DNA of 43,680 nt from Deltaproteobacteria bacterium (lineage in GTDB: Bacteria > Myxococcota_A > UBA9160 > SMWR01), in the NCBI GenBank assembly GCA_024640705.1, contig JAHEEJ010000001.1:1-43680 (forward strand), in the 5' to 3' direction. The notes beneath the pieces were generated by a model that searched no databases, had not been told where the DNA came from, and saw only the letters and a list, made by a program, of their open reading frames with translations. Position numbers and translations under genes: made by a program. The first letter of the stretch is position 1. Each line of letters begins with the position of its first letter. Positions 4,905 to 31,367 of the stretch are shown here, one piece after another.

Positions 4905-4908
4905 GCGA

Positions 4909-11365: not shown

Positions 11366-12805
11366 CTAGGTTCGCGCGCTCGCGGCGGCTCGCACCGCCT
11401 CTTCGAGCAACGCCACCCAGTGTCGGGCGGGTTCGGCCCAGGAAACATCCTGTTTCATCAGTCGACGACGCAGGTCCGCCGCCCCCGGCCCAGCCAAAAG
11501 CTTCGCAGCGCGCTCCGCCGCGCCGATCAACACGTCCGGTTCTAGCGGAGCGAACAGCAAACCGGTTTCGCCGTCGACGATCGTATCCACGAGTCCCCCC
11601 ACCCGATTTGCGATCGGCAAGCATCCATAGCGTTGAGCGAGCAGCTGCACCAGCCCGCAGGGCTCGAAGCGAGAGGGCACCAGCAGCGCGTCTGCGCCCG
11701 CGTAGATCCGCCGGGACAGCGCTGCATCCCAGCCGCGCACCAGCCGTACACGGCCCGGGTGCCTTACGGCGGCGTCTTCGATCACGGCGGCAATCAGCGG
11801 GTCCCCTTCGCCGAGCAGCGCGAGTGCAGCACCGGCGGCGACCAGTCCGTCCAGCGCATCTGCGAGCACGTCCCAGCCCTTCTGTGCAGCCAAGCGCCCG
11901 ACCGACGCGATCAAGCGCCCCGCGGGCGGTGTCGCGAGTTCGAGTTCGTCGAGCAGTGCGGTGCGACAGCGGGTGCGGCCCGCCGGGTTGGCGGCAGAAA
12001 AGCGGGCTGCCAGCGCCGCGTCGCTTTCCGGCGCGTAGCTTTGGGTGTCGATGCCGTTGTGGATGCCGATCAGGCGATCGGCGCAAGCGCGATAGACACC
12101 GTCCAGGCCTCCACCCAACTCCGGCGTGCACAGCTCGCGCGCGTAGGTCGGGGATACGGCGACGACGCGGTCTGAGAAGAGCAGACCCGCTTTCAGCAGG
12201 CAGATTCCGCCGTAGAACTCCAGACCACTCGGCCCGAAGAGTTTGGAGGGCAGGCCGGTATGCGCGAACTGATCCGCTTCGAAGCGGCCGATGTAGGCGC
12301 CGTTGTGCACGACCTGCACGGCGGCGGGAACGCTGTCTCGAGCGCGTGTCGCAGCGCCCGCCTGCTGCACACGCAACACACAGGGTGCGAGCGCCGCGTG
12401 CCAGTCGTGCGCCACCAAGACGTCGCTTGCGAGCTGCAAGGCGAGCTGCGCGCCCGCTTGCCCGAGCGCGATGAAACGGCGCGCGTCCGACTCGTCTCCG
12501 GCGTAGAGGCCGGGCCCGTCGTAGAGTTCGGGCAGTTCGAGCACTCTCAGCTCGACACCCGTCGCAAGTCTACCCGCGAGCCAACGGCCGCGTTGCCATT
12601 CGCCAGCGCCGCCAAGCTCCACGCTTTCGGCTGGAGCCAGCGCGGGACACTCCGGATGCGTGAGGAGATCCCGGTAGCCGGGCAGTGCGCAGCAGACGTC
12701 GTGCCCGAGACGGACCAACTCCGTGGCAAGCCCCGCGACCGCCTCTCCGAGTCCACCCGTTTGCGCCAGCGGCGCCAACTCAGACGCCAGAAACAGGATG
12801 CGCAT
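11366..12805 (-). CDS. glgA: Glycogen synthase (ADP-glucose type, GT5)
   Basis: N-terminus MRILFLASELAPLAQTGGLGEAV (KTGGL-type motif). C-terminal LVPSRFEPCGLVQL. Confidence 0.93.
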   Translation of the reverse strand: MRILFLASELAPLAQTGGLGEAVAGLATELVRLGHDVCCALPGYRDLLTHPECPALAPAESVELGGAGEWQRGRWLAGRLATGVELRVLELPELYDGPGLYAGDESDARRFIALGQAGAQLALQLASDVLVAHDWHAALAPCVLRVQQAGAATRARDSVPAAVQVVHNGAYIGRFEADQFAHTGLPSKLFGPSGLEFYGGICLLKAGLLFSDRVVAVSPTYARELCTPELGGGLDGVYRACADRLIGIHNGIDTQSYAPESDAALAARFSAANPAGRTRCRTALLDELELATPPAGRLIASVGRLAAQKGWDVLADALDGLVAAGAALALLGEGDPLIAAVIEDAAVRHPGRVRLVRGWDAALSRRIYAGADALLVPSRFEPCGLVQLLAQRYGCLPIANRVGGLVDTIVDGETGLLFAPLEPDVLIGAAERAAKLLAGPGAADLRRRLMKQDVSWAEPARHWVALLEEAVRAAASART

Positions 12806-12811
12806 CTAGAA

Positions 12812-14086
12812 TCAGCCCTGGGCCTGTCTTGGAGCCGGAGGGTCGAACTCGTCGAGTTGGTCGTAGTGCTCGCGGGCCACCACGACGATGCCACCCGGAC
12901 TGACCGCGAAGCGACTCCGGTCCCGCTCCGGATCCTCGCCGATCACTTCTCCGGCTGGGATCCGGACGCCCTTGTCGACGATGCAACGCCGCAGCCGCGC
13001 GTCGCGCCCCACATCGACTTGCGGGAAGAGCACGCTCTCCTGCACATCCGCGCGGCTGTGCACGTAGACCCCCTGGAAGGCCACGGTGCGGTTGATCCGG
13101 CCGCCCGACAGGATGGCTCCGGCGCCGACGACCGAGTCGGTGGCCATGCCGACGCGGCCATCGCCAGTATCGTTGAAGGTGAATTTCGCCGGACCGTGTG
13201 AGGGCAGCAGGCCGCGGATAGGCCACCCATCATTGTACAAGTTGAGCTTCGGCGAAACGGACACGACGTCCATGCTCGCCTCGAAGTACGCATCGAGGTC
13301 GCCGACGTCTCGCCAGTAGCCGCGCCCCCCCTCCGCTTCGCCGGTGCACAGGTGCGAGGTGAAATCGTACGCGAATACGGCCATCCGCTTGTGGGAAGTG
13401 CTCAGGATGTCGCGACCGAAGTCGTGGGTGGTCTGTTCAGCGGAGGCATTGCGCTTGAGTTCCTCGAGCAGTGCGGGGGTGCGGAAGATGTAGTTGCCCA
13501 TCGACACCAAAGCATGATCGGGCCTGCCCGGCATCGCGGGCGGATCGGCGGGCTTCTCGTGGAAGTCGGTGACGCGGCCGTCGTGGTCCACCGACAAACA
13601 GCCGAACGCGTGGGCCTCCGCTCGAGGCATGGGCAGCGTTGCGACGGTGAGATCCGCGCCAGCATTCCGATGCTTGGCCAACATTTGACGCACATCCATC
13701 TTGTAGACATGGTCCGCGCCAAACACCAGCACGTCCTGCGGGCGCTCTTCTCGCAGCAGGTCGATGTTCTGCCAGATGGCGTCTGCGGTGCCGCGAAACC
13801 ACGACGGCCCCAGGTTCATCGCCGCCGGGACCGGATCGATGAACTGATCGAGCACGCCGGGCGCCACCGACCAGGCTCGCGCCAGGTGCCGCACCAGCGA
13901 GGTGGCCCGGTACTGGGTCAGCACCTTGATGCGCAGCATGCGGCTGTTCACCAGATTGGACAGCACGAAGTCGATCAGCCGATACCGACCGCCGAAGTAG
14001 ACCGCTGGCTTGCTCCGCTCGCGCGTGAGCGGGTAAAGCCGCCGACCTTCACCGCCGGCGAGAACCAGTGCCAGTGTTCCGTGCAT
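12812..14086 (-). CDS. glgC: Glucose-1-phosphate adenylyltransferase
   Basis: LVLAGGEGRRLYPLTRERSKPAV, FGADHVYKMD, and a C-terminal hexapeptide-repeat region. The start was re-called to the ATG at 14086 (MHGTLALV), which has a GGAGGG RBS. The 92 codons upstream in the track ORF are Arg/Pro/Ala-rich and not GlgC-like. Confidence 0.93.
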   Translation of the reverse strand: MHGTLALVLAGGEGRRLYPLTRERSKPAVYFGGRYRLIDFVLSNLVNSRMLRIKVLTQYRATSLVRHLARAWSVAPGVLDQFIDPVPAAMNLGPSWFRGTADAIWQNIDLLREERPQDVLVFGADHVYKMDVRQMLAKHRNAGADLTVATLPMPRAEAHAFGCLSVDHDGRVTDFHEKPADPPAMPGRPDHALVSMGNYIFRTPALLEELKRNASAEQTTHDFGRDILSTSHKRMAVFAYDFTSHLCTGEAEGGRGYWRDVGDLDAYFEASMDVVSVSPKLNLYNDGWPIRGLLPSHGPAKFTFNDTGDGRVGMATDSVVGAGAILSGGRINRTVAFQGVYVHSRADVQESVLFPQVDVGRDARLRRCIVDKGVRIPAGEVIGEDPERDRSRFAVSPGGIVVVAREHYDQLDEFDPPAPRQAQG

Positions 14087-14109
14087 TTCCGCCCTCCCAG
14101 AATCCCTCG

Positions 14110-14115
14110 ATTGTA
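14110..14115 (-). promoter_or_regulatory. Candidate -10 hexamer (TACAAT) for the glycogen operon
   Basis: The minus strand reads TACAAT 23 nt upstream of the glgC ATG. The -35 at 17-nt spacing is weak (CGGGCA). Confidence 0.2.
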
Positions 14116-14360
14116 GGCGCAGATCCGCGGAGTGCCCGGCTGTCCTGGGGCGGAGCCCGATCTCGGGTAAGATCGCCGAGGATCTTGGGCGCAACGCCAA
14201 AATCGCGTCGATTCTGAGCCTGCCCGAAGCCGGGCCCGAACGCGCCGTCGGCGCTGACGATGCGGCAGCGACGGGAGCCGGTCGAGTGCCGCAAGGTGAC
14301 GATCGGCGGCCCTGCCGCAAAAATCTTCGAGCCGAGACAATCTTTGGGGCACGATCAAAC

Positions 14361-15401
14361 ATGAGAAGTGCACGGGTCGCGATCGCGATCGGGTGGGTGC
14401 TCGTCGCGCTCGGATGTCAGGGGCCGGGCGTGGCGCGAAAAGAGATCCCGGAGGATCCGATTGCGTTCATCTTTCACCCCGAAGACGAAGCCCGCCGCCG
14501 CGCAGAGGCGCGCGCAACGCGCGGGGCGGCGGAATCCCGACGCGGGCTCGACCATTCCGCGGTCGTCCATCTGAACACGTTTCGCGACTACCTCGCCAAG
14601 GCGTTTGGCGGCCGCGCGAATGACGAATTTGCGGGTCGGCTCTCCCTCCTCGATCCCAGGAGTCGGCAGGTGACGCCAATCGAGTCGGCGCGGGCGGGTG
14701 CGATTCCGCTTGCCTGGTCTCCCGGGCGCGATCGTCTGCTGTTCGCCCAGTGGGACCAGCAAACGCTTCAACTCTTCGAATTCGAGCGCGACTCGCAGAT
14801 CGTGTCCCAACTCACGAGAGGGCCCGACCATCACCCACAGGGCTGCTACGGGCCGGGCGGGCGACTGGTCGCGGCGGTCGCGAGGCGGCCGAAACCGGAG
14901 GAGGGCGGGGTGAGCCGGGCGAAGCTGGTCTCGCAGATTGCCGCATTGGGCCCGGGCGACGCGGTCGAACCGATCTCCGCGGGGCCGATGGACGGAGAGC
15001 CCGCCTGCAGCCCGGACGGCGCTGCGGTTGCCTACGTCCGGCTTTTCCCCGATCGGCGCAGCGAGATCTGGATCCACACCTTTGGAGGCGCAGAACCCGC
15101 CCGGGTGCTCGCCCAGGGCCGGGAACCTTCTTTTTCGCCGGATGGCGAGTGGATCGTCTACAGTCGGACCGTCGGCAAGACGCCCGCGCTATGGCGCATC
15201 CGCCGCGACGGCACCGGCCGCACCCGGATCGGGCGCGGATCCGGTGCGGAAGAGTACGGCCCGGCGGTTTCACCGGATGGCTCACTCGTGGTCTACGAGT
15301 CCGTATCGGGCAATCGCTATCGGCTCTTCGTGAGGCGGTTCGATGGATCCGGTGACACGGTTTTGTTCGCGGATGGAGATGGCAATCATGTTGTGTGGTA
15401 G
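14361..15401 (+). CDS. TolB-like / PD40 beta-propeller repeat periplasmic (lipo)protein
   Basis: Start re-called to the ATG at 14361. Signal peptide MRSARVAIAIGWVLVALGC with a lipobox-like LGC. Repeated SPDG motifs (CSPDGAAVAYV, SFSPDGEWIVYS, AVSPDGSLVVYES). Confidence 0.75.
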   Translation: MRSARVAIAIGWVLVALGCQGPGVARKEIPEDPIAFIFHPEDEARRRAEARATRGAAESRRGLDHSAVVHLNTFRDYLAKAFGGRANDEFAGRLSLLDPRSRQVTPIESARAGAIPLAWSPGRDRLLFAQWDQQTLQLFEFERDSQIVSQLTRGPDHHPQGCYGPGGRLVAAVARRPKPEEGGVSRAKLVSQIAALGPGDAVEPISAGPMDGEPACSPDGAAVAYVRLFPDRRSEIWIHTFGGAEPARVLAQGREPSFSPDGEWIVYSRTVGKTPALWRIRRDGTGRTRIGRGSGAEEYGPAVSPDGSLVVYESVSGNRYRLFVRRFDGSGDTVLFADGDGNHVVW

Positions 15402-15419: not shown

Positions 15420-16694
15420 ATGACCGAAAACAAGTTGGATACGAGCGCCGATCTGGTTCCGGTGCATGGCGGGTTGCACGATTTGATCGACCGCCGTGTT
15501 CCGCTCGGACAGCGGAGCCGGTTCGTGAAGGAGGCGGAAGCGCTTCCGTCGGTGCGCGTCACCCGGGCCGATCTCTCGACCGTTTATCGGATTTCTGATG
15601 GTGCGTTGTCGCCGATGGAAGGCCCGATGCGCGCCGACGTGTGGAATCGCGTTCTCGACGAACAGTGCATCGAAGTGGGTGGGCGTCGCTTCGCGTGGGG
15701 GATTCCGTTGTCGCTTCCCGTGACGCCCGAAGAAATCTCCTCGTTGTCCGCCGGAGGGTCGGCCGCACTTCGAGACGAGTCGGGCACGGTGGTCGGGGTC
15801 CTCGATGATCTCGAGATCTTCGAGTGGGACAAGACGCGCTACATCGAGAAGGTGTACCGGACGGATCGATTCGATCATCCGGGTGGACGCGCGGTCGAAA
15901 GTGATCCGCGCAATCATCTGCTTGGGGGGACGCTGCGCGTACTCCCGCAACCCATCGATCCCGATTACGGCGAGTACATGCTCTCGCCGAGAATGACGCG
16001 CACGTTCATTCGGGAGCACAAGTGGGATCGCGCGCTGGCTTTCCAGACCCGCAATCCGCTGCACCGAGCCCACGAATACGCGCTGGTCGCGGGCGCCGAA
16101 ATCCTCACGCGTGGGGGTCATTTCACGGGCGTCGTCCTCAATCCGCTCGTTGGTGAACTCAAGGGCGATGACGTGCCGGCCGCCACCCGGATGCGTTGTT
16201 ACCGGCTGCTCCACGACCGGCGGCTGCTCGGAGAGGGTGACAAGGACGAGGCGCTCTGGCGCTCCGTTGGGTACGACTTGTCGGAAGTGTTCGAACTGAT
16301 CGGGCTCGACATCAAGATGTTCTACGGCGGCCCGAGCGAAGCCATCATGCACGCGATCTACCGCCAGAACTACGGCTTCAGCGATCTCGTGATCGGCCGC
16401 AAACACGCCGATGCCCCGTTCGAGGATGGCAGTCCGATCTGGGGCGACTTCGATGCCCAGGAGGTGTTCGACCAGCTCGCGGGTGAGCTGCACATCCGGC
16501 CCTGCAAGATCGGGTTTGCGGCGTTCTACGAATCGCTCGGGCGCGTCGATCTCACGGAAAGGCATCCCGATGAGAAACCGGTGATGGTGAGCGGTACCAA
16601 GGTGCGCGAACAGCTGCACTCCGGGGAGACGCCGGATCCGCGAATCATGCGACCGGAGGTCGCCGCCATCCTGATCGAAGCATTTCGCTCGTAG
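15420..16694 (+). CDS. sat: Sulfate adenylyltransferase (ATP sulfurylase), single-function form
   Basis: FQTRNPLHRAHEYA (QTRNPxHRAHE) and GGPSEAIMHAIYRQNYG motifs. AAGGAGAG RBS upstream. No APS-kinase domain. Confidence 0.9.
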   Translation: MTENKLDTSADLVPVHGGLHDLIDRRVPLGQRSRFVKEAEALPSVRVTRADLSTVYRISDGALSPMEGPMRADVWNRVLDEQCIEVGGRRFAWGIPLSLPVTPEEISSLSAGGSAALRDESGTVVGVLDDLEIFEWDKTRYIEKVYRTDRFDHPGGRAVESDPRNHLLGGTLRVLPQPIDPDYGEYMLSPRMTRTFIREHKWDRALAFQTRNPLHRAHEYALVAGAEILTRGGHFTGVVLNPLVGELKGDDVPAATRMRCYRLLHDRRLLGEGDKDEALWRSVGYDLSEVFELIGLDIKMFYGGPSEAIMHAIYRQNYGFSDLVIGRKHADAPFEDGSPIWGDFDAQEVFDQLAGELHIRPCKIGFAAFYESLGRVDLTERHPDEKPVMVSGTKVREQLHSGETPDPRIMRPEVAAILIEAFRS

Positions 16695-16715: not shown

Positions 16716-19004
16716 CTAGACCATGCGAATACGGGGAGTCCCTGCGCGCGTGAGCAGGTCTTCGCGCGCTGTGCCCTCGGTCGGATAGAGCGCATATCCG
16801 AAGCTCAGCGCAATCCGGATCGGATCGTTGAGGGTGTTGTCCTTGGATATGTCGTCGGCGACTGCGCGAGCCAGCGCGTAGACGCGCTCTCCCGCCGAGT
16901 AGCCCGGGTCGGGCATGAGGATGGTAAATTCGCCCTTGCCGGTGCGGCCGATCACGTCGAAATCCCGCAGGTGATTGCGAAGCGCTTCGACGGCTCGCTG
17001 CACCACCTCGCGGGCGCGCCCCCGGCCCGTCGCATTCCGGATCTCATCGAGGTTCTCGAGCGAGCAAACCGCAATCGCGAGCGCGCCCTCGTGTTCCGAT
17101 GCGCGTGCAATTTCGTCGTCGATTCGCTTGTTCAGATAGCGCTCGTTGGGGAGGCCCGTCTCAGTCTCGAAATTTCGATATTGGCGCGCCTGGGCGTAGA
17201 AGTCCGCGTTGGTCACCGCCCGCTCGACATAGGACGCGAACTTCGTGAACAGTCCGAGGTCTTCCTGCGAAAAACGGCCAACGTAGAAGCGGTCGGCAAC
17301 GACCTTGTCGTAGATGGTGAGCGTTCCGATCACGCGGCCTTCTCGCATCAGTGGCGCTGCGATCGCGGACTGGAAGTCTGCGCGGAGTTCGCTCAGTGCG
17401 GCGTCGTCTGCGAGGTCGGCGATCAGATGGGGCGCGCGCTTCTTGATGACTTCGACGGCGATTCGCTTGTCCAGTCGGAACAACTGCTCCTGGAGTCGGC
17501 CATCTGCGGAACCGAAATAGGACCGGATCACATACCGCCGGGTTTCTTCATCCTGGATCCTGAGGATCGCGTGATCGGCTCCCAGTGCCATCGCGGCAGA
17601 CGAGGTTGCCATGCGCAGCACCTCGGCGGGATCGGTCGCGGAGATCATCCGGATTCCGGCTTCGTTGAGTGCACCCACCTTGGTGGCTTGGGAAGTCATG
17701 CTGGCTTCGCGCTCTGCGTGGGCGATCTCTTCAGCTGCCGCCGCGGCAATTTCGGACAGCGTTTCCTCGGCAGCGCGGCTGCCAGCCGCCTCGTTGCCAC
17801 CCTGGACGGATAGAACACCAAAGAGAGTATCGCCGGCAATCAGTGGAACGGCCGCGTAGGCGAGGTTGCCCTTCGCGGACCGCAAGATCGAAGGTTCTCG
17901 TGCCTGTGCGGCGGACCCATCGATGCCTCTGCCGATCTTGATCCGGTATTCGCCACCGAAACCGCCGCCTTCCAGCGAGGTCGCACTCAGTCGCAGATCC
18001 GTTTCGCCACTATCACGCAGGTAGATGGTCGCTATGCCATGGCCGACTTGTTCGGCGACGAAGAGGCAGAACGAGCGCAGTCGATCCGGAAGCGGATCTC
18101 TTCCCGACAGGATCTCCCGCACGCGCCGTACCGCGGTGTAGCGAGCGGCCTGACTCCGCAGGGCTTCGTGTTCCTGGGATCGGGCGATGATCTGGGCGTC
18201 GAGGTGTGCGAGCTGCTCGGCGAATTCGAGACTCTCATCCGAAAAGGCATCTGCCTGGGTCGAGTGGTGCAGATTGAGGACGCCGAGCACGCGGCCTTCG
18301 AAGATCAGCGGCACCGAGATGGCCGATTCGACGTCGAGGCGCTCGCGGACGATCTGGAAAGCCTGGCGATCGGCCTTGCCGCGAAGCCGGAGCGGGCGAG
18401 CGTCTGCGGCGACGCGGCCCGCAATGCCATGACCGATCGGAACCCGGATTTTGGGCCACAATTCGGGTTCGACACCCGCTGCGACCCGCACGCGAAGCTC
18501 GCGGGCAGCGTGATCCAACAACATCAGGGAGCCGCCCTCGGCACCGGTGACGGCGACGGCAATCTCGAGCACACGCGAAAAGAGTTCGTCCGCGTCGACG
18601 GTGAGGTTGTAGGACTCCACGATCTCGTGAAGCGCAGTCAGGAGATCGGCCTTGCTGTTCGGCGAGGTGCGACCGAAGCACCAGAGGAGGCGCGCGGTCA
18701 GGGGGGTGACGATCTGGACGCCTCGCTCGCTGAGGGCTGGGTGGCTCGCGGCAAAATCGCCGCTCGCGCTGGCATCAATCACGGCGTGAAGGTTCGTATC
18801 GAGAATCAGCGCGTCGAGATCGGTAGTCATGCACGCGTCCAACACGCGCGCGATGCCGGGATCGATTGCGCTGAAATGCTGCCGAATCGATTCGTCATCG
18901 GGCTCGACGATGGCGCCGATCTCGAACTCGGGATTTTCCAGCAGTGAGGGGATCAGCTGGCGCGCTTCTTCGGTTGCGCGATAGATGCCGATCCGCTTGC
19001 GCAT
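16716..19004 (-). CDS. Multi-GAF protein with C-terminal degenerate GGDEF domain (GKGEF) that retains an RxxD I-site
   Basis: 762 aa. GAF-like blocks (e.g. GGSLMLLD...VLGVLNL, LFGVLSVQGG, VIGTLTIYD). GGDEF-domain entry ETGLPNERYL. The sequence RDFDVIGRTGKGEF (16926-16967) has GKGEF in place of GGDEF. The ATG overlaps the upstream TGA by 1 nt. Confidence 0.8.
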   Translation of the reverse strand: MRKRIGIYRATEEARQLIPSLLENPEFEIGAIVEPDDESIRQHFSAIDPGIARVLDACMTTDLDALILDTNLHAVIDASASGDFAASHPALSERGVQIVTPLTARLLWCFGRTSPNSKADLLTALHEIVESYNLTVDADELFSRVLEIAVAVTGAEGGSLMLLDHAARELRVRVAAGVEPELWPKIRVPIGHGIAGRVAADARPLRLRGKADRQAFQIVRERLDVESAISVPLIFEGRVLGVLNLHHSTQADAFSDESLEFAEQLAHLDAQIIARSQEHEALRSQAARYTAVRRVREILSGRDPLPDRLRSFCLFVAEQVGHGIATIYLRDSGETDLRLSATSLEGGGFGGEYRIKIGRGIDGSAAQAREPSILRSAKGNLAYAAVPLIAGDTLFGVLSVQGGNEAAGSRAAEETLSEIAAAAAEEIAHAEREASMTSQATKVGALNEAGIRMISATDPAEVLRMATSSAAMALGADHAILRIQDEETRRYVIRSYFGSADGRLQEQLFRLDKRIAVEVIKKRAPHLIADLADDAALSELRADFQSAIAAPLMREGRVIGTLTIYDKVVADRFYVGRFSQEDLGLFTKFASYVERAVTNADFYAQARQYRNFETETGLPNERYLNKRIDDEIARASEHEGALAIAVCSLENLDEIRNATGRGRAREVVQRAVEALRNHLRDFDVIGRTGKGEFTILMPDPGYSAGERVYALARAVADDISKDNTLNDPIRIALSFGYALYPTEGTAREDLLTRAGTPRIRMV

Positions 19005-20062
19005 CAGCCGCTTTCTCCGTTGGGCTCGGGATCGAGCTGGATGGTGAGCACGAGATTCGATGTCCGGCCACTCTTGTCGCTGACGACGAGCGGGATGCGC
19101 ACGCCGCGCTCGCCACTTCGGGTGGCCTCTCCGACGGATGCAATCGAAAATTCGGAATCGAGTTGGACGGCCGCCGCCGGTTCGCCCTCGTCTTCGAGTT
19201 CGCCCCAGGGGATATCGAGCGCGGTCTGCGCGGATGCGGCCAGGTCGTCGATCAGATTGGCCTCGGGGTGCTCTTCTTCGGCGAGGATCGCGTCTTCCAT
19301 CCTGGCCGCTGCGCTGACTTCCGCAGCGGGAGCCGTCGGCGCGACCTCCTCGGCAGCGTCCATCGGCGTCGGTTCGGCAGCGGGTTCGATTGCCTCGGTC
19401 TGGATCGGTTCTGGCTGGGCCTGGAGGCCGCTGAGGCTGTCGCCGGGCTCCGCCTTGGCGTCGGTCTGGGCGGAGAACTGCTGGCCTCGCAGGCTGCGAA
19501 TCACGTGCTTGGAGAGCGTCGAAAGCGTCTGGAGGACACCCGAGTTCTCGGTCGCAATCGCCTCGAATACGGCGACTCCATTCATCCCGAGTTTCCGATG
19601 CAACTCTTCGATCGCATAGGGATCCGCTAGATCGCGCTTGTTGTATTGCAAGACGAGGGGAACGTCTTCGAGCTCGCGCCCGTAGTCGAGCAGCATCTTG
19701 CCGAGTTCGGCCAGGCTCGACGCGTTTTCTGCGATGCGCTCTCTTTGCGAATCGACCACCATCACGATGCCGTCTACCTGGTCGAGCAGCTGCTTTCGGG
19801 TGGGCGCCTGATTGGAGCCGCCCGGGACGGCGATCATTTGAATGCGGGTCTTCAACCCTCCGACTTCGCCGAGTTCGATGGCCAGGGTTTCGTATTCGAC
19901 CGCCGGATCGATCAGGGTGGCTTCGCGTTGAATCTCCCCGCGGTGATCCGCCCTGAGCTTGCGATGGATCGACTGTAGATTCGTGGTTTTGCCGGCTCCG
20001 TCGATCCCCCAGTAGAGGATTCGCGCGTTTACCGCGGTCTCGTCGGAGTTCATCTTGGCCAT
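19004..20062 (-). CDS. MglA-like Ras-superfamily small GTPase with a ~160-aa acidic C-terminal extension
   Basis: Start re-called to the ATG at 20062 (MAKMNSDETAVNARILYWG). P-loop GIDGAGKTT, LQYNKRD (NKxD), AVPGG in place of the MglA TVPGQ. Collinear with MglA as I remember it, over about residues 1-190. Confidence 0.8.
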   Translation of the reverse strand: MAKMNSDETAVNARILYWGIDGAGKTTNLQSIHRKLRADHRGEIQREATLIDPAVEYETLAIELGEVGGLKTRIQMIAVPGGSNQAPTRKQLLDQVDGIVMVVDSQRERIAENASSLAELGKMLLDYGRELEDVPLVLQYNKRDLADPYAIEELHRKLGMNGVAVFEAIATENSGVLQTLSTLSKHVIRSLRGQQFSAQTDAKAEPGDSLSGLQAQPEPIQTEAIEPAAEPTPMDAAEEVAPTAPAAEVSAAARMEDAILAEEEHPEANLIDDLAASAQTALDIPWGELEDEGEPAAAVQLDSEFSIASVGEATRSGERGVRIPLVVSDKSGRTSNLVLTIQLDPEPNGESG

Positions 20063-21168
20063 CAGACCTTCCCCTTCCTGGACAATATGCGGCGGGCGTG
20101 AGTGGAAATGACTCGCGAAACGTCTCGGCTTCGCATCAAATTGCGCAGATCCTTGTCCTGTAGGTAATTGACGAATTTCACCGCCATCGACTGCGGGCAC
20201 TTGGGGTTCGCGGCGAGGGCCAGTTTGATCTGGTAGTTGCGCGTCCAATCCTTGTTCATCGCAATTACGCGATACACCTCATCGCAGACGTTGCGCGACT
20301 GCGCGATCGCGATGATTTCGGACTCGGTGATCTTGGGGCTGGTGGCCACCGAAATTGCGACGAGTTTGTTGCGATCCCGTACGAGCAGACTGCGCGCCTC
20401 CTTGTTTCCCATTCGGCCGATCTGGATCTTCTGGAAGACGGTCATCTGCTGGACCAGCTGGAAGAGGTTGCCCTGCTGGAGTTCCTGGATCTGTTCCTCG
20501 GTAATGTCCTCGCCCTTCTCCTCGACGAGTTGTTTGACGTAGTGGCCCATTTCGTCGCCGAGTACCGCGCGCAGCGCGGCTTCGGCTTCCTGGTCGGTGA
20601 TTGCCGATTCGTCGCGCTGTCCGTCGAGATTCTCGGCGACTTCACTCGCTCCGATGAAATTGAGGATCCGCTCGATGACTGCGCGCCCCGTGAGGGGATT
20701 GGTGCCGAGCGCATCGACGATCTCGGGTGCGCGCAGTATGCGGTCCTGATTGTTCGAGATGATCTCCACGACCTTCTTGTGCGGCGAGGCGGCGAGCTTT
20801 GCAATCGTCGCATCGTCGGTCGCGGGGTTGAGGGCGATCATTTCGAGCTGGTCGGATTTGTCCGCGCGGCAGCCTGCAAAAAACGAGAGCAGGGCTGGAT
20901 GGCTCGGGCCGCTCAGCACGGCGTTCGTGATGGTTGCGGGCAGACTTTCGAGACTGTCGCGCGCGGTCGATTTGACTTCGGCGTCCGGATCGTGTGTCAG
21001 TGCGAAGAGCACGGTGGCGAGTTCGATTGCGGGCAGGGGCAGGGCGCCTTTCGCCGCCATCAGGCGCGTGTCTCGCGGAGCGTCCTGCCGCGCATAGCGC
21101 TCTGCGCGCTTGGACAGGGTCAAGCGGATCTTTTTCGCCTGTCGCTCCATTGACGCGCTTCCCCGCAT
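20062..21168 (-). CDS. All-alpha helical-repeat protein (HEAT/LRV-like), function unknown
   Basis: 368 aa. Recurrent helix-turn units containing NPxT/NPKCP turns (ALNPATDDATIAKLAASP, LGTNPLTGRAVIERIL, LAANPKCPQSMAVKFV). An alternative start is the ATG at 21150 (MERQAKK), with GGGGAAG upstream. Confidence 0.6.
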   Translation of the reverse strand: MRGSASMERQAKKIRLTLSKRAERYARQDAPRDTRLMAAKGALPLPAIELATVLFALTHDPDAEVKSTARDSLESLPATITNAVLSGPSHPALLSFFAGCRADKSDQLEMIALNPATDDATIAKLAASPHKKVVEIISNNQDRILRAPEIVDALGTNPLTGRAVIERILNFIGASEVAENLDGQRDESAITDQEAEAALRAVLGDEMGHYVKQLVEEKGEDITEEQIQELQQGNLFQLVQQMTVFQKIQIGRMGNKEARSLLVRDRNKLVAISVATSPKITESEIIAIAQSRNVCDEVYRVIAMNKDWTRNYQIKLALAANPKCPQSMAVKFVNYLQDKDLRNLMRSRDVSRVISTHARRILSRKGKV

Positions 21169-21221
21169 TCTCGCCGGGGCAGCGTGCCCCGACCCAAGGC
21201 CGGCCTTCGACCTCCGGCCGG

Positions 21222-23276
21222 CTATGCACCCTCCGCCGCGGCGGTCCCGACCTCGGCGATGACCTTCTCTTTGATGTGACTCGGTGCTTCGTCGTAATGG
21301 GAGAACTCCATGTGGAATTCCCCCTGTCCTCCGGTCATGCTCGTCAGCTGGCTCGCGTACTCGAGCATCTCTGACATCGGCACTTGTGCCTGGATGACCT
21401 GAGTCGAACCTTTCGCTTCACTCGATTGGACCCGGCCGCGCCGGCTCGAGAGATCCCCCATGATGTCGCCCACGAAGGTTCCCGGGATCGAGACTTCGAC
21501 GTCCATCACGGGCTCGAGCAGGACCGGTTTCGCCTTCTGGACGGCCGCCTTGAGGCCAAAAGACCCCGCAAGCTTGAACGCCATCTCGTTCGAGTCCACG
21601 GCGTGGTGTTTGCCATCGATGCAGTGGACCCGGACATCGACGACCGGGTAGCCGGCGAGGGGTCCGGCCTCGCAGGCCGCGTAGATCCCCTTCTCGACAG
21701 CCGGGATCAGGCTCCTGGGGATGGAGCCGCCCTTGATTTCGTCCACGAACTCGATTCCTTCCCCGCGGGGCTTCGGCTCGACGGTGAGGTAACAGACGCC
21801 GAACATCCCCTTGCCTCCGGTCTGCTTCTTGAGCTTTCCCTCTACGTTCTCGGCTCGGCGCGTGATGGTCTCGCGGTAGGGGACCTTCGGTCTCTTCAGC
21901 TCGACATCGACCCCGAACAAGCGTTGTAGTTTTTGCATCGTGATCCGGACGTGAAGCTCGCCCATCCCGGTGAGAAGGAACTCGCCGGTGGAGGCTTCTC
22001 GGCCGAGGTGGAGGGTCGGATCTTCCTCCACGAGTCGGCCGAGCGAGGCGTAAACTTTATCCTCATCCCCCTTTGATTTCGCTGAGATGGCGTATGAAAT
22101 GACACCCTGCGGAATCGGGATCTCACGCAGCGTGGGGGCGCCTTTTTCCGCCGTGAGCACGTCTCCCGTGTGGGTGTCCTTGAGCTTCGCAACGGCGACG
22201 ATGTCGCCCGGGCCGGCTGAATCGACTTCCACGTGTTCGATGCCCCGCAGCAGCTGGAGCTTGCCGAAGCGCTCCCGCTGATCTCGCGTGGGGTTCAGCA
22301 CGTTCGAGTCCGAGTGCGCGGTTCCGGAGACCACCCGAAACACCGACAGTGCCCCCGCGTAGCGATCGATGACGGTCTTGAATACCACTGCCGCAAACGG
22401 CGCATCGGGATCGGCGGCCACGGGTTCACCGTTGGCATCCTTCCAGGGCCTGCGGTCGGCGGCCGAAGGCAGCAGTTGAATGGCCCCCTGCATGAGCGTT
22501 TCGACGCCGAGTTCCGAGAGCGCCGCGCCACAGAAGACCGGCGTCACCTGACGGCCGTGGGTCGCGATGACGAGGCCCTTTGCGACTTCCGCATCCGTGA
22601 GTTCGCCCTCTTCGAGGTATTTCTCGAGCAGGGAATCGTCGCACTCGGCTACGGCCTCGACGAGTTGCGCGCGTGCGTCGGCGGCCGCTTCTGCGAGTTC
22701 GCTCGGGATCTCCGATTCTCCGGACGCAGTCATCGCCTTCATCTTCAGCAGGTCGATGACGCCCTTGAAGTCGTCGCCGTGGCCGATCGGCAGGCTGACG
22801 GCCACCGGATTGGCACCCAACTGCTTCAGTGCGTCGATCATGGCCGGGAAGTCACTTCGCTCTTTGTCCAATGCGTTGACGAACGCGAGCAGCGGAATCT
22901 CCTTCGATCGACAGAATTTCCACATGCGCTGGGTTCCCACCTTGGGTCCGGAGGCCGCGGACACCAGCAGGATCGCTCCGTCGAGCGCGCAGAGTGCAAT
23001 GCGTCCGTCGGCCTGGAAATTGGAATCCCCTGGAGTGTCGACGAGCGTGAGGTGCTTGCCCGACCATTCGAAGCCGAAGACGGATGAGGTCAGGGTGGAC
23101 TGGCGCTCCTTCTCCTCGGGAAGCGTGCTCAGGTGTGAGGTCCCTTCGGTGACGATTCCCAACGAGGTGGTCGCGCCCGCGCGATGCAGGATGGCTTCGC
23201 CGAGCGAAGTCTTGCCATCGCCTGTGTGTCCGATCAGTGCAAAGCAGTGGGTATCGTTGACCTTCACGTCTTTCAT
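21222..23276 (-). CDS. Elongation factor G paralogue (EF-G II-like translational GTPase)
   Basis: 684 aa with EF-G domain order. G1 GHTGDGKTS, G3 DTPGDSNF, G4 NALD. Domain IV/V segments (GMGELHV, HAVDSNEMAFK). GAAGGAGG RBS. Confidence 0.88.
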   Translation of the reverse strand: MKDVKVNDTHCFALIGHTGDGKTSLGEAILHRAGATTSLGIVTEGTSHLSTLPEEKERQSTLTSSVFGFEWSGKHLTLVDTPGDSNFQADGRIALCALDGAILLVSAASGPKVGTQRMWKFCRSKEIPLLAFVNALDKERSDFPAMIDALKQLGANPVAVSLPIGHGDDFKGVIDLLKMKAMTASGESEIPSELAEAAADARAQLVEAVAECDDSLLEKYLEEGELTDAEVAKGLVIATHGRQVTPVFCGAALSELGVETLMQGAIQLLPSAADRRPWKDANGEPVAADPDAPFAAVVFKTVIDRYAGALSVFRVVSGTAHSDSNVLNPTRDQRERFGKLQLLRGIEHVEVDSAGPGDIVAVAKLKDTHTGDVLTAEKGAPTLREIPIPQGVISYAISAKSKGDEDKVYASLGRLVEEDPTLHLGREASTGEFLLTGMGELHVRITMQKLQRLFGVDVELKRPKVPYRETITRRAENVEGKLKKQTGGKGMFGVCYLTVEPKPRGEGIEFVDEIKGGSIPRSLIPAVEKGIYAACEAGPLAGYPVVDVRVHCIDGKHHAVDSNEMAFKLAGSFGLKAAVQKAKPVLLEPVMDVEVSIPGTFVGDIMGDLSSRRGRVQSSEAKGSTQVIQAQVPMSEMLEYASQLTSMTGGQGEFHMEFSHYDEAPSHIKEKVIAEVGTAAAEGA

Positions 23277-23296: not shown

Positions 23297-24091
23297 TTAT
23301 GAATTGGACCGGTTCTTTTCAAAAATCAACCTGAGGCCTTCCAGTGTCAGGAAGGGCTCGACTCGATCGATGACTCTGCATTCGGCGGAAACCCGGCCCG
23401 CGAGCCCGCCGGTGGCGACCACCCGGGCGTCGGCTCCGAGTTCGCCGCGAATTCGCTCGACCATCGAGTCCACGACTCCTGCGAATCCGTAGAGGAGCCC
23501 GGATTGGAGGGCCCCGGTCGTGGTCTTTCCGATCACACTGCGCGGACGCACGAGTTCGACCTGGTGGAGCATCGAGGCGCGCTCGAACAGCGCGGCCATC
23601 GAGGTGTGGATCCCCGGGAAGATGGCGCCGCCGAGGTACTCGCCGTCCTTCGACACACAGTCGAAGGTCGTCGCCGTGCCGAAGTCGACCGCAATCACCG
23701 GGCCTCCGAGCAGTTCGAATGCGGCCAGTGAATTGACGATCCGATCGGCGCCGACCTCGCGTGGGTTGTCGTAACGCACGGGGATGCCGGTGCGGATGCC
23801 CGGGCCGACCACGAGGGGCGGGCGCCCGAAGAGCTTGGTCGAGACCCGCTCCCAGATCGGGAGCAGCGGTGGCACCACGCTCGAGATCACGATGTCCGTG
23901 ACTTCCCCGCAATCGCGATCGACGTGCCGAAACAGCTCACGCACCGTCAGTGCGGTCTCATCCGACGTTTGCTCGCGATGGGTGCCGATGCGCCAGTGTT
24001 CGGAAAGCGTGGCCGCGCCGCTGGCGGGATAGTCGAAAACTCCCAGGGATACGTTCGTGTTCCCGATGTCGATGGCGAGTAGGGTGGTCAA
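23297..24091 (-). CDS. coaX: Type III pantothenate kinase
   Basis: LLAIDIGNTN and VIAVDFGTATTFD motifs. Start re-called to the TTG at 24091, which has AAGGAGAG upstream and overlaps the birA TGA (TTGA). The upstream 71 codons of the track ORF are Arg-rich junk. Confidence 0.88.
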   Translation of the reverse strand: MTTLLAIDIGNTNVSLGVFDYPASGAATLSEHWRIGTHREQTSDETALTVRELFRHVDRDCGEVTDIVISSVVPPLLPIWERVSTKLFGRPPLVVGPGIRTGIPVRYDNPREVGADRIVNSLAAFELLGGPVIAVDFGTATTFDCVSKDGEYLGGAIFPGIHTSMAALFERASMLHQVELVRPRSVIGKTTTGALQSGLLYGFAGVVDSMVERIRGELGADARVVATGGLAGRVSAECRVIDRVEPFLTLEGLRLIFEKNRSNS

Positions 24092-25086
24092 TGGCTCTCC
24101 TTGGCCAGCGTTACATCGCCTGCGATCACCCGGATCACGTCTCCGGTTTCCAGTTGGAGACGCAACGCGCCATCGCCGTCGATGCCCAGCGCGGTTCCGC
24201 GGCGTTCGCAACCGTCGAGTTCGAGCACGCTGACCTGCTGGCCGCGCATCTGGAAGCGCGCATCGAACTTGTCGCGCACGCCATCGAAGCCGCGGTCCGC
24301 GCAAACGTCCAGGGTCCCTTCGAGGTTACCGTACAGACGCCTCGCGAATGCCAATCGATCGACGGGGCGACCGCTGTGGCTCGCGAGGCTCGTCGCGCGG
24401 TCTCGGAACTCGTCGGGGAACTGGTTGCGGTCGACATTGAGGTTGACGCCGATTCCGAGCACCAGGAAGTCGACCCGGGTGGCCTCGGCGCCGAGTTCCA
24501 TCAGGATTCCAGAAGTCTTGAGGCCGCCGAGCAGCACGTCATTCGGCCATTTGATCGAGACATCGCCCGCCTTTCCGAGCGTCTGTTCGATGGTCTCGGC
24601 AACGGAAACCGCCGCTGCGAGGATCCAGCTCGGTGCTTCTGCGGTGTGGATTCTGGGCCGCAGGACGATCGAGGTGTAGAGGTTCGCGGAGGGGGGAGAG
24701 AAGAAGGAGCGCCCGAGGCGGCCCCTCCCGGCCGTCTGTTGATCCGCGACGACGGTGGTTCCGTGGGCGGCGCCGGATCGCGCGAGATCGAGCGCGACCC
24801 GATTGGTGGAATCGACGGTCTCGAAGTAGTGGATCTCCGTCGCGAGCCAGCTGGTTTCCAGGCCGGTCTGGATCTCTTCTACGTAGAGGCGATCGGGAAT
24901 CTCGGCAAGTCGATAGCCGCCGCCCGGATCGCCATCGATCGTGTAGCCGCGAGCTCGCAACGCTTCGACGTGTTTCCACACCTGTGCGCGCGTTACCCCA
25001 AGTCGGGACGAGAGCACTTCACCTGAACAGGTTTCACCACCGGCGCGGCGGAGAGCATCGAGAATGCGCGCCGGGCCGCCCGTCAC
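24088..25086 (-). CDS. birA: Bifunctional biotin-[acetyl-CoA-carboxylase] ligase / biotin operon repressor
   Basis: N-terminal wHTH (ILDALRRAGGETCSGEVLSSRLGVTRAQVWKHVEALR). GRGRxGR motif in ADQQTAGRGRLGRSF. GTG start overlapping the nadC TGA (GTGA). Confidence 0.9.
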   Translation of the reverse strand: MTGGPARILDALRRAGGETCSGEVLSSRLGVTRAQVWKHVEALRARGYTIDGDPGGGYRLAEIPDRLYVEEIQTGLETSWLATEIHYFETVDSTNRVALDLARSGAAHGTTVVADQQTAGRGRLGRSFFSPPSANLYTSIVLRPRIHTAEAPSWILAAAVSVAETIEQTLGKAGDVSIKWPNDVLLGGLKTSGILMELGAEATRVDFLVLGIGVNLNVDRNQFPDEFRDRATSLASHSGRPVDRLAFARRLYGNLEGTLDVCADRGFDGVRDKFDARFQMRGQQVSVLELDGCERRGTALGIDGDGALRLQLETGDVIRVIAGDVTLAKESH

Positions 25087-25967
25087 GCGGGAGCCCTCCC
25101 TGGTTTGGCGACCACGTCCTCGATTTCCAGCGCGACATCCGCCGCGGGTGCAGAATGGGTCAGGGCACCGATGGAGATGCGATGCACGCCGGTCTCGGCG
25201 ATTTCACGCACATTGCCGAGGTGAACGCCGCCCGAGACCTCGAGCTGGGCGCGGTCCGCGAGTTGTGCGGCGATGGCTCGCATTTCGGCCGGCGTGCGGT
25301 TGTCGAGCAGCAGGTAGTCGGCGCCCGACTCGACCGCCTCGATCGCTTGCGCTTCGCTCTCGACTTCGACGCAAACCCGCAGGTTCGCGGGCGCGGCGGC
25401 GAGCGCGGCTTTGACCGCGAGCCCCACGCCTCCGGCGATCGCGACGTGATTGTCCTTGAGCAAGATGCCGTCGTACAAGCCGACGCGGTGGTTCGTGGCG
25501 CCGCCCACTGCGGTCGCGTATTTGTCGAGGCCCCTCCAGCCGGGCAGGGTCTTGCGCGTGTCGACGATGCGAACGCCCGTGCCCTTCACGGCGTCGACAA
25601 AACGGTGTGTCCAGGTTGCGACGCCGCACATTCGCATCAGGAAATTCAGCGCCGTTCGTTCGGCGGCGAGGATGCCGCGCAGATCTCCCTGTACGGTTGC
25701 CAGGATGTCTCCGGGTTCCGCCTGCTCGCCGTCGCGGATCAGGGTTCGAAGCTGGAGCTGGGCATCGATTTCGCGAAACACCGCGAACGCGATCTCGAGT
25801 CCGCACACGACCAGGGGCTGGCGGGCTTCGATGATCGCAGAGCCCTGGCGGCCGGCCTCTACGACCAGGGGTGTCGTCGCGTCGCCGGCGCCGATGTCCT
25901 CGCCGACCGCCAATTCGACGAGCGGAAACCAGGTTCGCTCCGGCGGGAGGGCCGGCGGAAAACCCAT
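25083..25967 (-). CDS. nadC: Nicotinate-nucleotide diphosphorylase (carboxylating)
   Basis: AERTALNFLMRMCGVAT, DTRKTLPGWRGLDKYA, GILLKDNH. Start re-called to the ATG at 25967. Confidence 0.9.
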   Translation of the reverse strand: MGFPPALPPERTWFPLVELAVGEDIGAGDATTPLVVEAGRQGSAIIEARQPLVVCGLEIAFAVFREIDAQLQLRTLIRDGEQAEPGDILATVQGDLRGILAAERTALNFLMRMCGVATWTHRFVDAVKGTGVRIVDTRKTLPGWRGLDKYATAVGGATNHRVGLYDGILLKDNHVAIAGGVGLAVKAALAAAPANLRVCVEVESEAQAIEAVESGADYLLLDNRTPAEMRAIAAQLADRAQLEVSGGVHLGNVREIAETGVHRISIGALTHSAPAADVALEIEDVVAKPGRAPA

Positions 25968-26165
25968 GTGAGCTCCATCGGCCCGTTGTGATGGCGAGAC
26001 GCTGCACGCGCAGCGCGCGCCGTCGGACACCCCGGGGGCCGGGCGGGGGAAGTCGAGGATAGCCGAAGCGAACGCGAGCGGTTCAGTGGATCGCAAACGC
26101 GAGGGTGGGGCGCATCGGAGGGGGGAATCGGCGATCGGAGTCCGTCCCGCCCATCGGCGGCCGGA

Positions 26166-27887: not shown

Positions 27888-28622
27888 ATGATACTCCGAT
27901 CAGCCGCCCGAACCGATGTTGGCCGCCGACGTCGGGCCAACGAGGACTGCTACGCGATCGCCGCGGAATTGGGGTATTTCGTCGTCGCCGATGGAATGGG
28001 GGGCCACAAGGCCGGCCAGCTCGCCAGCCGACTCGCCGCCGAAGCAGCCGTGGCCGCGCTCGAAGCCCTCGAAGGCTCGGCGGCGACGCTCACCGAAAAA
28101 TTGAGATGCACGATCGCCGCCGCGAATCGGGAGATCTACGTCGCCGCTCAGGCCAAGCCCGAATACTCCGGTATGGGGACGACGCTCGTTTCGCTGCTGG
28201 CCGTGGAGGGTCGGGTTGCGCTCGCACACGTAGGAGACAGCCGCGCTTATCTGGTCCGTGGCGGCCGTATTCGACAACTCACCGATGATCACTCGGTCGT
28301 CGGCGAACTCGTTCGACGCCGCGAGATCACGGAGTTGGCCGCTCGCGAACATCCGCACCGGCACGTGCTGACCCGAGCGATCGGTGTGCGGCGCGAGGTC
28401 GCTCCCGATCTGGCGGAGTTGACCTCGTCTCCTGGGGATCTCTTCGTGCTCTGTTCCGACGGTCTGACCGGTCTCGTCCACGACGAAGAAATTGCCGAGG
28501 CTGCGAACACCGGCAGCGACCTCGACACGATCTGCGAGCAACTCGTCGATCTTGCAAACGAGCGCGGCGGTGAGGACAACATCACGGTCGTCGTCGTCCG
28601 CTACGAGAAGGAATCCGCCTGA
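27888..28622 (+). CDS. PP2C-family Ser/Thr protein phosphatase
   Basis: RTDVGRRRRANEDC, VVADGMGGHKAG, LCSDGL, GGEDNITVVVV. Confidence 0.9.
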   Translation: MILRSAARTDVGRRRRANEDCYAIAAELGYFVVADGMGGHKAGQLASRLAAEAAVAALEALEGSAATLTEKLRCTIAAANREIYVAAQAKPEYSGMGTTLVSLLAVEGRVALAHVGDSRAYLVRGGRIRQLTDDHSVVGELVRRREITELAAREHPHRHVLTRAIGVRREVAPDLAELTSSPGDLFVLCSDGLTGLVHDEEIAEAANTGSDLDTICEQLVDLANERGGEDNITVVVVRYEKESA

Positions 28623-28661
28623 TTTCGCGGGGCTGAGGAGTCGGCCACCTCGGTCGATCGC

Positions 28662-29426: not shown

Positions 29427-29516
29427 GAATGAATTCCTCTCCTCGGCTGACGGAATGCTTCGGGCCCCGGGGCACTCGGCGAGTTGCCGCCTCATGCCCG
29501 TTGGTTGCGCAGAGAA

Positions 29517-29531
29517 GCACGCGCTGTGCCA
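29517..29531 (-). promoter_or_regulatory. Sigma-54 (-24/-12) promoter upstream of the FliA-type sigma gene
   Basis: The minus strand reads TTGGCACAGCGCGTGCTT, i.e. TGGCAC-N5-GTGC with exact GG-N10-GC spacing and one mismatch to TGGCAC-N5-TTGC. It lies about 90 nt upstream of the ATG at 29426. Confidence 0.6.
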
Positions 29532-31342: not shown

Positions 31343-31350
31343 TGAGGTTG

Positions 31351-31367
31351 CCTCCGCTTGGCGGAGG
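31351..31367 (-). promoter_or_regulatory. 7-bp GC hairpin (CCTCCGC-N3-GCGGAGG) containing the Shine-Dalgarno of the NtrC-type gene
   Basis: Perfect inverted repeat cctccgc ttg gcggagg. On the minus-strand RNA, the 3' arm GCGGAGG carries the GGAGG that sits 8 nt before the proposed CTG start. Confidence 0.35.

Follow-up and report, generated by a model that had tools for sequence, protein, structure and literature searches.

The window analysed here, a stretch of 43,680 nucleotides of contig JAHEEJ010000001.1 from a deltaproteobacterial genome assembly (GCA_024640705.1), carries three overlapping genes that encode, in the order of reading, a helical-repeat protein that we call HEL (a 368-amino-acid open reading frame [ORF], 20062-21168), a long MglA-like G protein (352 amino acids counted from the ATG inside TGATG, 19004-20062), and a GAF-GGDEF protein of 762 amino acids (16716-19004). 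These genes lie on the minus strand, as do all other features given below from position 16716 of the window upwards unless the plus strand is stated. The HEL and GTPase genes meet in a TGATG stop/start overlap at 20060-20064, and the GTPase and GAF-GGDEF genes in another at 19002-19006; because the minus strand reads GGTCTGATGGCC at the first junction and GGCTGATGCGC at the second, TGA and ATG share one base at both. The 1-nt overlaps were already listed in a preliminary description of the locus, and ORF positions and reading of the minus strand confirm them. Since HEL homologues are 361-362 amino acids long, the real start of HEL is probably Met7 at 21150 (362 amino acids), and a Shine-Dalgarno-like GGGGAAG string sits 7 nt upstream of this codon. 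Terminator and promoter scans across the cluster returned no more candidates than expected by chance and none on the minus strand.

One-base stop/start overlaps are frequent in compact operons, and a single one has no evidential value. In order to see how the arrangement is distributed, we scanned one genome per species with HEL, which yielded relatives in 148 genomes, and examined the best 80 loci, taken as Myxococcota at species level (53-90% identity; individual loci are given L numbers below). The GTPase gene is directly next to HEL in 79 of the 80, the remaining contig ending at that point, and the GAF-GGDEF gene comes next after it in 67. Of 79 HEL/GTPase junctions, one per species, 62 are -1 nt and nearly all others 0 or +1; of 67 GTPase/GGDEF junctions, 45 are -1 and 12 are -4. 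In these genomes, the spacer between HEL and the elongation factor G (EF-G) paralogue gene that precedes it takes values between -4 and 131 nt, indicating that the fixed geometry is specific to the junctions within the trio. Unlike the single overlap itself, the conservation of the overlaps exceeds chance. The linkage was also followed in reverse, from metagenome loci picked by the GGDEF protein alone (53-91% identity). The GTPase gene is directly upstream in all 66 of these loci that have at least 700 nt of upstream sequence, HEL is present in all 37 that have at least 2300 nt, and the GAF-GGDEF family was never seen without its HEL and GTPase partners among these GGDEF-picked loci.

The G protein is a Ras-like GTPase collinear with MglA, as first described. 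A phmmer search against the PDB retrieved Myxococcus xanthus MglA (7.8e-35) and Thermus thermophilus MglA (4e-34) in gapless alignment over residues 4-192, with 37% identity to M. xanthus MglA in the G domain; the top Foldseek hit of the G domain is MglA-GTPgammaS (6h17; E 1.6e-19, TMt 0.90, root mean square deviation 2.0 Å), and Pfam reports Arf at 7e-13. In the AlphaFold2 model, the protein consists of the G domain (residues 10-200), a disordered linker (203-247), two helices (251-282), and a three-strand β mini-domain (305-342); the linker after residue 200 is rich in Pro, Ala, and Glu. The C-terminal mini-domain (about residues 304-345, EFSIASVG...LTIQLD; 19028-19153) is modelled with a predicted local distance difference test (pLDDT) score of 83-87, and this unit of ~45 residues is kept in 74 orthologues as well as in distant long MglA proteins with canonical motifs. 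A PilZ domain was considered for this region and rejected on inspection, since it has only ~45 residues and its RxxxR/DxSxxG-like strings are too close together.

The residues on which GTP hydrolysis by MglA depends are replaced in the G protein. The P-loop GIDGAGKT (residues 19-26; 19985-20008) has Asp at position 21, the equivalent of Ras G12, which is Gly in MglA and Glu, Asp, or Ala in the orthologues. Switch I, IDPAVEY (residues 51-57; 19892-19912), carries Pro in place of the Arg53 finger and Ala in place of Thr54; of 74 locus orthologues, 73 have Pro at position 53, and 114 database homologues have Pro or Ser there, never Arg. In the G3 motif AVPGG (residues 78-82; 19817-19831), Gly replaces the catalytic Gln82 of TVPGQ, and this position is Gly, Ala, Ser, or Asn, never Gln, across the same 74 orthologues and 114 homologues. 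The G4 motif NKRD (residues 141-144; 19631-19642) would retain guanine specificity, and the N, K, and D of NKxD are essentially invariant in both sets. The P-loop Lys is present in 65/74 locus orthologues and 113/114 database homologues; it is lost at L045, L046, L048, L051, L065, L066, L070, and L076, and the genomes of L045, L051, and L070 are also among those with no adjacent GGDEF gene.

An intrinsic arginine finger beside the G2 threonine (Arg53-Thr54) is kept by every Group 1 MglA protein, and MglB acts by positioning this finger and the Gln of MglA (Wuichet and Sogaard-Andersen 2015, PMC4316618); MglA G21V and Ras G12S have been discussed as changes that cripple hydrolysis (PMC3983030). 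Because Gly21, Arg53, and Gln82 are lost, the G protein would not be usable as a normal MglA switch, and it is predicted to be unable to hydrolyse GTP and insensitive to an MglB-type GTPase-activating protein (GAP). The predicted insensitivity fits the absence of a Roadblock gene: none of the window ORFs scanned yielded a Roadblock/LC7 domain, in line with the earlier remark that no such gene is adjacent. Orphan MglA proteins without MglB exist (PMC4316618). Among the defining features of MglA Group 1, the G protein shares the nearest fold and sequence, the P-loop pattern GxxxxGK[ST], and the G4 pattern [NT]KxD, and it departs from the group in lacking Arg53-Thr54, TVPGQ, and an MglB gene within four genes, and in not being a single-domain protein of 150-240 residues.

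The overall structure predicted for HEL by AlphaFold2 (pLDDT 77) is all helical, with 27 short stacked helices arranged in two lobes. Lobe 1 (about residues 12-165; 21135-20674) and lobe 2 (residues 235-368; 20466-20065) are separated by a disordered acidic linker (residues 166-234), and the model has the stacked helical hairpin repeats typical of HEAT/ARM-type proteins. HEL matched nothing in Pfam, NCBIfam, or PADLOC, and its earlier description as an all-helical repeat protein stands. A Foldseek search of the predicted structure, proposed earlier as a way of detecting a well-known family with an unrelated function, revealed no such family: nothing in the PDB was found at E<1e-3, and the best matches were generic ones to designed ARM repeats, PP2A-A, and importins, all with E of at least 0.02. 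A profile built from 40 diverse HEL relatives matched nothing in the PDB but designed HEAT-like alphaRep proteins (3.6e-6). Pfam scans of 40 relatives gave HEAT_2 in 13 and LRV_2 in 7, all below the gathering score; no curated HEAT or LRV model was above threshold for the HEL of the window, and no tetratricopeptide repeat (TPR) family appeared in the scans of HEL and the 40 relatives. HEL belongs to a large family, with 4176 representative clusters at E≤1e-3 (919 at 1e-30), and is highly conserved: the mean column identity is 69% over 21 sequences, and many Arg, Asn, and Pro residues are invariant. HEL is thus predicted to be a HEAT/LRV-like α-solenoid outside the well-known families. Assignment to a known fold family was rejected, since structure and profile searches against the PDB gave only generic or designed HEAT/ARM repeats. 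An anti-phage defence system was likewise discarded as an identity for the trio, none of the three proteins having a PADLOC hit.

The GAF-GGDEF protein has an α/β-like N-terminal domain (residues 1-125), three GAF domains (about residues 136-600, 18599-17205; Pfam GAF_2, 7.7e-38), and a degenerate GGDEF domain (residues 616-755, 17159-16740; Pfam GGDEF, 1.1e-18), the last scoring 68 bits against the Pfam cut-off of 23.8 (PF00990). No PDB relative was found for the N-terminal domain (first ~125 residues). Alignment with PleD places the motif GKGEF (residues 689-693; 16926-16940) at the active site, and the three GAF stretches and this motif bear out the earlier view of a multi-GAF protein with a degenerate GGDEF end. 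Among 62 orthologues, the motif takes the form xxxEF, its first three positions varying between G/A/D, D/E/P, and A/D/G; the position of the metal-binding Asp of PleD is occupied by Arg, Lys, or Ser, and the substrate-binding Asp is also replaced. The RxxD motif of the inhibitory site (I-site), RDFD (residues 680-683; 16956-16967), lies five residues before the GGDEF position, and its Arg and Asp are each kept in 60/62 orthologues at this canonical spacing. A lost active site (A-site) combined with a kept RxxD is the signature of GGDEF domains that serve as receptors of cyclic diguanosine monophosphate (c-di-GMP), such as those of PopA, PelD, and SgmT. With a dead active site and a conserved I-site, the GGDEF domain of the trio is a predicted c-di-GMP receptor.

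Remote loci indicate that HEL and the G protein form an older pair. At L082, the order nadC-birA-coaX-SPOR-HEL is followed after 12 nt by the gene for a 387-residue MglA-like protein, in which TDRT and TVPGQ are intact and the same β mini-domain forms the C terminus. Used as a query, this protein retrieved a large family of long (270-400 residues) MglA-like proteins. R53, T54, and TVPGQ are present in all of the 120 best hits, and the mini-domain in nearly all; the loss of catalytic residues is therefore specific to the clade of the window. Carriers of the canonical form include Desulfuromonas, Dadabacteria, and Chrysiogenetes. In four loci picked by the GTPase alone, an HEL homologue is directly upstream in every case, at gaps of -1 to 15 nt, making five out of five remote loci with L082; in hmmsearch, the upstream proteins of the remote loci matched HEL at E values of 1e-77 to 1e-127. 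A SPOR-domain gene directly precedes HEL in all five (L082, 5594-6991; L090, 3820-4899; L091, 4093-5013; L092, 3659-4783; L093, 3607-4767), and at this position none is found in the window or its lineage. Three of the four GTPase-picked loci have coaX and birA upstream, and one has nadC.

Because the remote GTPase-picked loci share this order, the ancestral unit is taken to be SPOR/HEL/long MglA with a catalytically intact GTPase. Compared with this cassette, the window lineage is missing the SPOR gene, has a degenerate GTPase, and has gained the GAF-GGDEF gene, which thus appears as a lineage-specific addition to the older HEL/long-MglA pair. The window retains HEL upstream of the GTPase gene and the C-terminal mini-domain after a disordered linker, as in the long MglA/HEL cassettes, a family defined here and not in earlier publications. 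The main survey of prokaryotic Ras-like GTPases covered only proteins of 150-240 residues (PMC4316618), and because of this size filter the long MglA family is absent from it. More distant HEL relatives (~30-40% identity) are often found near birA and coaX without a GTPase. The synteny that the preliminary description had named as a check thus holds from three directions, starting from HEL, from distant GTPases, and from the GGDEF protein; together with the absence of the unit from the literature searched, this supports the proposal of an uncharacterised small-GTPase/c-di-GMP signalling unit.

Five genes (~5 kb) upstream of the trio and on the same strand, a gene at 26166-27641 (probable start at Met75 of the ORF) encodes a response regulator with a REC domain (Pfam Response_reg, 2.3e-20), a disordered linker of ~300 residues rich in Pro, Asp, and Ala, and a conserved Glu-rich helical C terminus. 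RomR is defined by a REC domain, an unstructured linker, and a Glu-rich α-helical C terminus, and romR adjoins valS in M. xanthus (PMC3441718, PMC2034494). A protein of this kind is encoded upstream in 44 of the 80 loci, with its C-terminal region conserved there, and at the Oligoflexia locus L088 a REC protein with the same C-terminal motif lies beside valS and birA near HEL. We therefore regard the product of 26166-27641 as probably RomR-like, an assignment that is architectural and syntenic only.

As judged from their sequences, the three genes would represent a module of the MglA family whose partner family and architecture are new and whose G protein is in a pseudo-GTPase state. We propose, with moderate confidence, that their products form a stoichiometric complex of a scaffold, a pseudo-GTPase, and a c-di-GMP receptor, which by analogy would work like the MglA-SgmX1-CdgA hub of Bdellovibrio. 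Acting as scaffold or effector, the HEL solenoid would bind to the G domain. The G protein, whose copy in the window has an intact P-loop and NKxD, would still bind guanine nucleotide, though without hydrolysis, and would serve as a permanently "on" or nucleotide-independent adaptor instead of a timer. The on/off decision would be passed to the GAF-GGDEF protein, which would sense c-di-GMP at its I-site, while its GAF domains possibly sense a second ligand. The output would most likely be spatial, namely, the recruitment or retention of proteins at the pole or division site, because the G protein is of MglA ancestry, a SPOR gene adjoins HEL in the ancestral cassette, and a RomR-like gene lies upstream of the trio. 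A wider idea, which we advance only tentatively and regard as rather doubtful, is that the SPOR/HEL/long-MglA cassette, which is kept from Desulfuromonas and Chrysiogenetes to Myxococcota, is an unrecognised ancient system marking the division site or new pole by means of a Ras-like G protein, and that in the window lineage its GTPase became a pseudo-GTPase and switching was handed to a c-di-GMP receptor.

Several observations weigh against this proposal. The polarity or division output draws on neighbourhood and ancestry only and is the weakest part of the argument, and the frequent EF-G paralogue next to HEL stays unexplained. In Bradymonadia, Oligoflexia, and other lineages, HEL is also present by itself and must therefore have a function independent of this GTPase. 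Five genomes carry the degenerate GTPase with other genes downstream and no adjacent GGDEF gene, so the receptor is either not obligatory or encoded elsewhere in the genome. All close relatives come from one uncultured lineage, and part of the synteny is therefore shared descent. In addition, the P-loop Lys is lost in 8 orthologues (GAGV/GAGT), and others have GK[R/K] for GK[T/S]; parts of the clade may thus have a G domain that binds no nucleotide at all, and "GTP-locked" is possibly the wrong picture.

One alternative is that the G protein is still a working switch, with HEL or the GGDEF protein serving as its GAP and supplying the missing catalytic residues in trans. RasGAP supplies an Arg finger in this way, and RapGAP an Asn thumb. 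The LGxNPLTGR motif of HEL (20674-20700, residues 155-162), with Arg162, and the residue Arg252 (about 20413) are invariant (81/81) in the lineage with the degenerate GTPase and are not conserved in HELs paired with a catalytically intact long MglA, which hints at such a role; retention of G4 and of most P-loops also suggests that nucleotide binding still matters. However, invariant residues specific to a clade are expected from descent alone, and Arg162 is also present in some HELs that have no GTPase partner. The three determinants of hydrolysis are gone together, several orthologues have no P-loop Lys, and a change to Asp or Glu at position 21 is of a type that prevents GAP-assisted catalysis (PMC3983030). 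We consider a GAP acting in trans unlikely.

A role of the cassette in translation or ribosome biology, in which HEL and the G protein would act with the EF-G paralogue, is suggested by the gene directly upstream of HEL (21222-23276; NCBIfam NF009381, 6e-246). The EF-G paralogue holds this place in 58/80 related loci and also at the remote loci L090, L091, and L093, i.e., in three of the five remote lineages, so that it recurs from Myxococcota to Desulfuromonas, and both HEAT-like proteins and small GTPases are common among ribosome-associated factors. Nevertheless, at least 15 loci with complete upstream sequence have no EF-G gene between coaX and HEL while the trio is intact (19 loci in all are without an EF-G match), and EF-G is also missing at L082 and L092. 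The G domain is specifically MglA-like, not translational. Moreover, the spacer between the EF-G gene and HEL (21169-21221; 53 nt in the window) is variable in length and carries two GC-rich hairpins (GCCGGCC...GGCCGGC and GGGGCA...TGCCCC) with no T-run, which may serve in processing or stability or as a weak terminator. A translational function of the cassette is therefore distinctly unlikely in our judgement.

It is also conceivable that the three genes simply lie side by side within a housekeeping operon (nadC-birA-coaX-...), where common descent and a compact genome hold them together, and that their products form no physical complex. The genes nadC (25083-26096), birA (24088-25086), and coaX (about 23297-24100), identified with Pfam, are a conserved backbone beside HEL in many lineages: their order in the window recurs at L082, L091, and L092, and birA or coaX is near HEL at L083, L085, L088, and L093. 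The close relatives all belong to one lineage, which also conserves the flanking coaX and EF-G genes, and stop/start overlaps are common in the window, e.g., between nadC and birA. However, HEL and the GTPase gene are still adjacent in remote lineages with different downstream genes, among them Desulfuromonas and Chrysiogenetes, the GGDEF family was never encountered without the pair in the loci picked by it, and the trio junctions are fixed while the EF-G/HEL spacer drifts, all of which make mere proximity quite improbable. Finally, that the 762-residue protein is an active GAF-regulated diguanylate cyclase like DmxA and that the module makes c-di-GMP is hardly credible, because, although its GAF-GGDEF layout is that of active DmxA (PMC11255338) and its GGDEF domain passes the Pfam threshold, the window protein has GKGEF and the orthologues xxxEF, the metal-binding and substrate-binding Asp residues are replaced, and the NCBIfam cyclase equivalogs all score far below their cut-offs.

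The scaffold/pseudo-GTPase/receptor complex that we favour would matter in several respects. MglA serves as the model of how Ras-like proteins exert spatial control in bacteria, and few of its partners have been identified; the long MglA proteins would add a large paralogue family, filtered out of the main survey by size, each tied to a conserved solenoid protein. The G protein of the one clade that has lost Gly21, Arg53, and Gln82 together would be a clean natural pseudo-GTPase. The coupling of a predicted c-di-GMP receptor to the G protein through overlapping genes offers a direct handle on crosstalk between c-di-GMP and polarity G proteins, a link that is an open question in both Bdellovibrio (CdgA) and Myxococcus (effectors of the DmxA burst). 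If the wider idea given above is true, the lineage of the window would be a natural example of a GTPase cycle replaced by second-messenger control. The cassette occurs in cultivable genera such as Desulfuromonas, and the ancestral pair is therefore genetically testable.

On the downstream side of the trio, the stop codon of the GGDEF gene is 21 nt away from the end of a convergent ATP sulfurylase gene (15420-16694, plus strand); where a genome has no GGDEF gene, the ATP sulfurylase gene (or an alanine dehydrogenase-like gene) abuts the GTPase gene. Farther downstream, 2469-14362 contains large genes resembling those of glycogen metabolism, including one for an ADP-glucose pyrophosphorylase-like protein with NTP_transferase and hexapeptide matches (12812-14362, scanned) and one with a GlgA-like N terminus (11366-12805). 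Beyond the RomR-like gene lies a regulatory island (27888-35187) that encodes a PP2C phosphatase (27888-28622, plus strand), a sigma-70 family factor (28662-29495), two sigma-54 activators (29822-31174 and, on the plus strand, 31358-32911), a PAS histidine kinase (32936-34735, plus strand), and a single-domain REC protein (34696-35187, plus strand). Among the compared loci, L085, from a deltaproteobacterial metagenome-assembled genome, has an IS605 OrfB/Cas12f-like TnpB pair (1750-3004) inside a V-type ATPase operon, upstream of coaX-TPR-HEL. Some genome bins with a Myxococcota-type cluster are titled Spirochaetales, Opitutales, or Gammaproteobacteria (L002, L017, L021, L023, and others) and are probably mislabelled.

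Full-text literature searches, whose coverage is incomplete, found no description of the cassette or of the trio, which agrees with the initial view that the arrangement is not a described MglA module; the same kind of search found nothing on the M. xanthus genes beside romR-valS (MXAN_4454-4459). Like the trio, the actinobacterial conservon (CvnA-D) and the systems of MglA Groups 2-5 are multi-gene operons around an MglA-family G protein; however, they contain a Roadblock protein and have GTPGQ in G3 (PMC4316618), unlike the trio. SofG of M. xanthus, an orphan MglA paralogue of 239 residues, resembles the G protein of the trio in having no cognate MglB and in its extensions beyond the G domain. 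It keeps the Arg finger and hydrolyses GTP (PMC4316618). SofG pairs with the bactofilin BacP, whereas no bactofilin gene is present here, and both architecture and neighbours differ.

On the c-di-GMP side, PopA, PelD, SgmT, and CdgA have lost the A-site and carry RxxD at the canonical five-residue spacing, as does the GGDEF protein of the trio. To our knowledge, an N-terminal domain with three GAF domains and an obligatory coupling to a G-protein gene are not features of these four receptors. DmxA of M. xanthus, with a transmembrane segment followed by GAF-GAF-GGDEF, is an active cyclase that is recruited to the divisome, where its burst of c-di-GMP sets polarity proteins at the new poles (PMC11255338). 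It shares the GAF-GGDEF combination with the protein described here and links c-di-GMP, the division site, and MglA polarity proteins; DmxA, however, is membrane anchored, active, and encoded with ftsB, whereas the GGDEF protein is soluble, predicted to be dead, and encoded with a G protein.

In the M. xanthus polarity module, MglA is combined with MglB-RomY as the GAP and RomR-RomX as the guanine nucleotide exchange factor. The MglA-type G domain is common to this module and the trio, the helical-repeat effector SgmX is a plausible parallel to HEL, and a RomR-like gene is found nearby in the window. The differences are that the window has no Roadblock gene, that the G protein has 352 residues with an extra domain and, by its sequence, could not use the MglB mechanism of positioning the intrinsic Arg53 and Gln82, and that the gene of its helical partner belongs to the same operon and shares overlapping codons with its own.

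The closest parallel that has been studied by experiment is the hub at the invasive pole of Bdellovibrio bacteriovorus. MglA (Bd3734) copurifies 1:1 with Bd2492/SgmX1, a helical-repeat protein of 353 residues, and Bd2492 and RomR bind CdgA (Bd3125), a degenerate-GGDEF c-di-GMP receptor (Milner 2014, PMC3983030), although the contact between RomR and Bd2492 was questioned by a later study (Remy 2024, PMC11025332). G21S has been argued to leave Bdellovibrio MglA permanently GTP bound, which would account for the loss of MglB (PMC3983030). There are also clear differences: the Bdellovibrio hub genes are unlinked, with Bd2492 in the tamAB operon, whereas the trio genes overlap; Bdellovibrio MglA has 197 residues and only G21S, whereas the G protein of the trio is without G21, R53, and Q82 and has an additional C-terminal domain. 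Bd2492 is called a TPR protein, and HEL, compared by description, has HEAT/LRV-like signals and no TPR hit. HEL was considered as Bd2492/SgmX and set apart on such descriptions, given the missing TPR signal and the location of Oligoflexia HEL outside the tamAB operon. Nonetheless, the Bdellovibrio hub and the trio have in common an MglA-family G protein that is predicted to be hydrolysis-impaired and does without MglB, a helical-repeat protein of ~350 residues, and a degenerate-GGDEF receptor, and a RomR-type regulator takes part in the former and is encoded in the neighbourhood of the latter.

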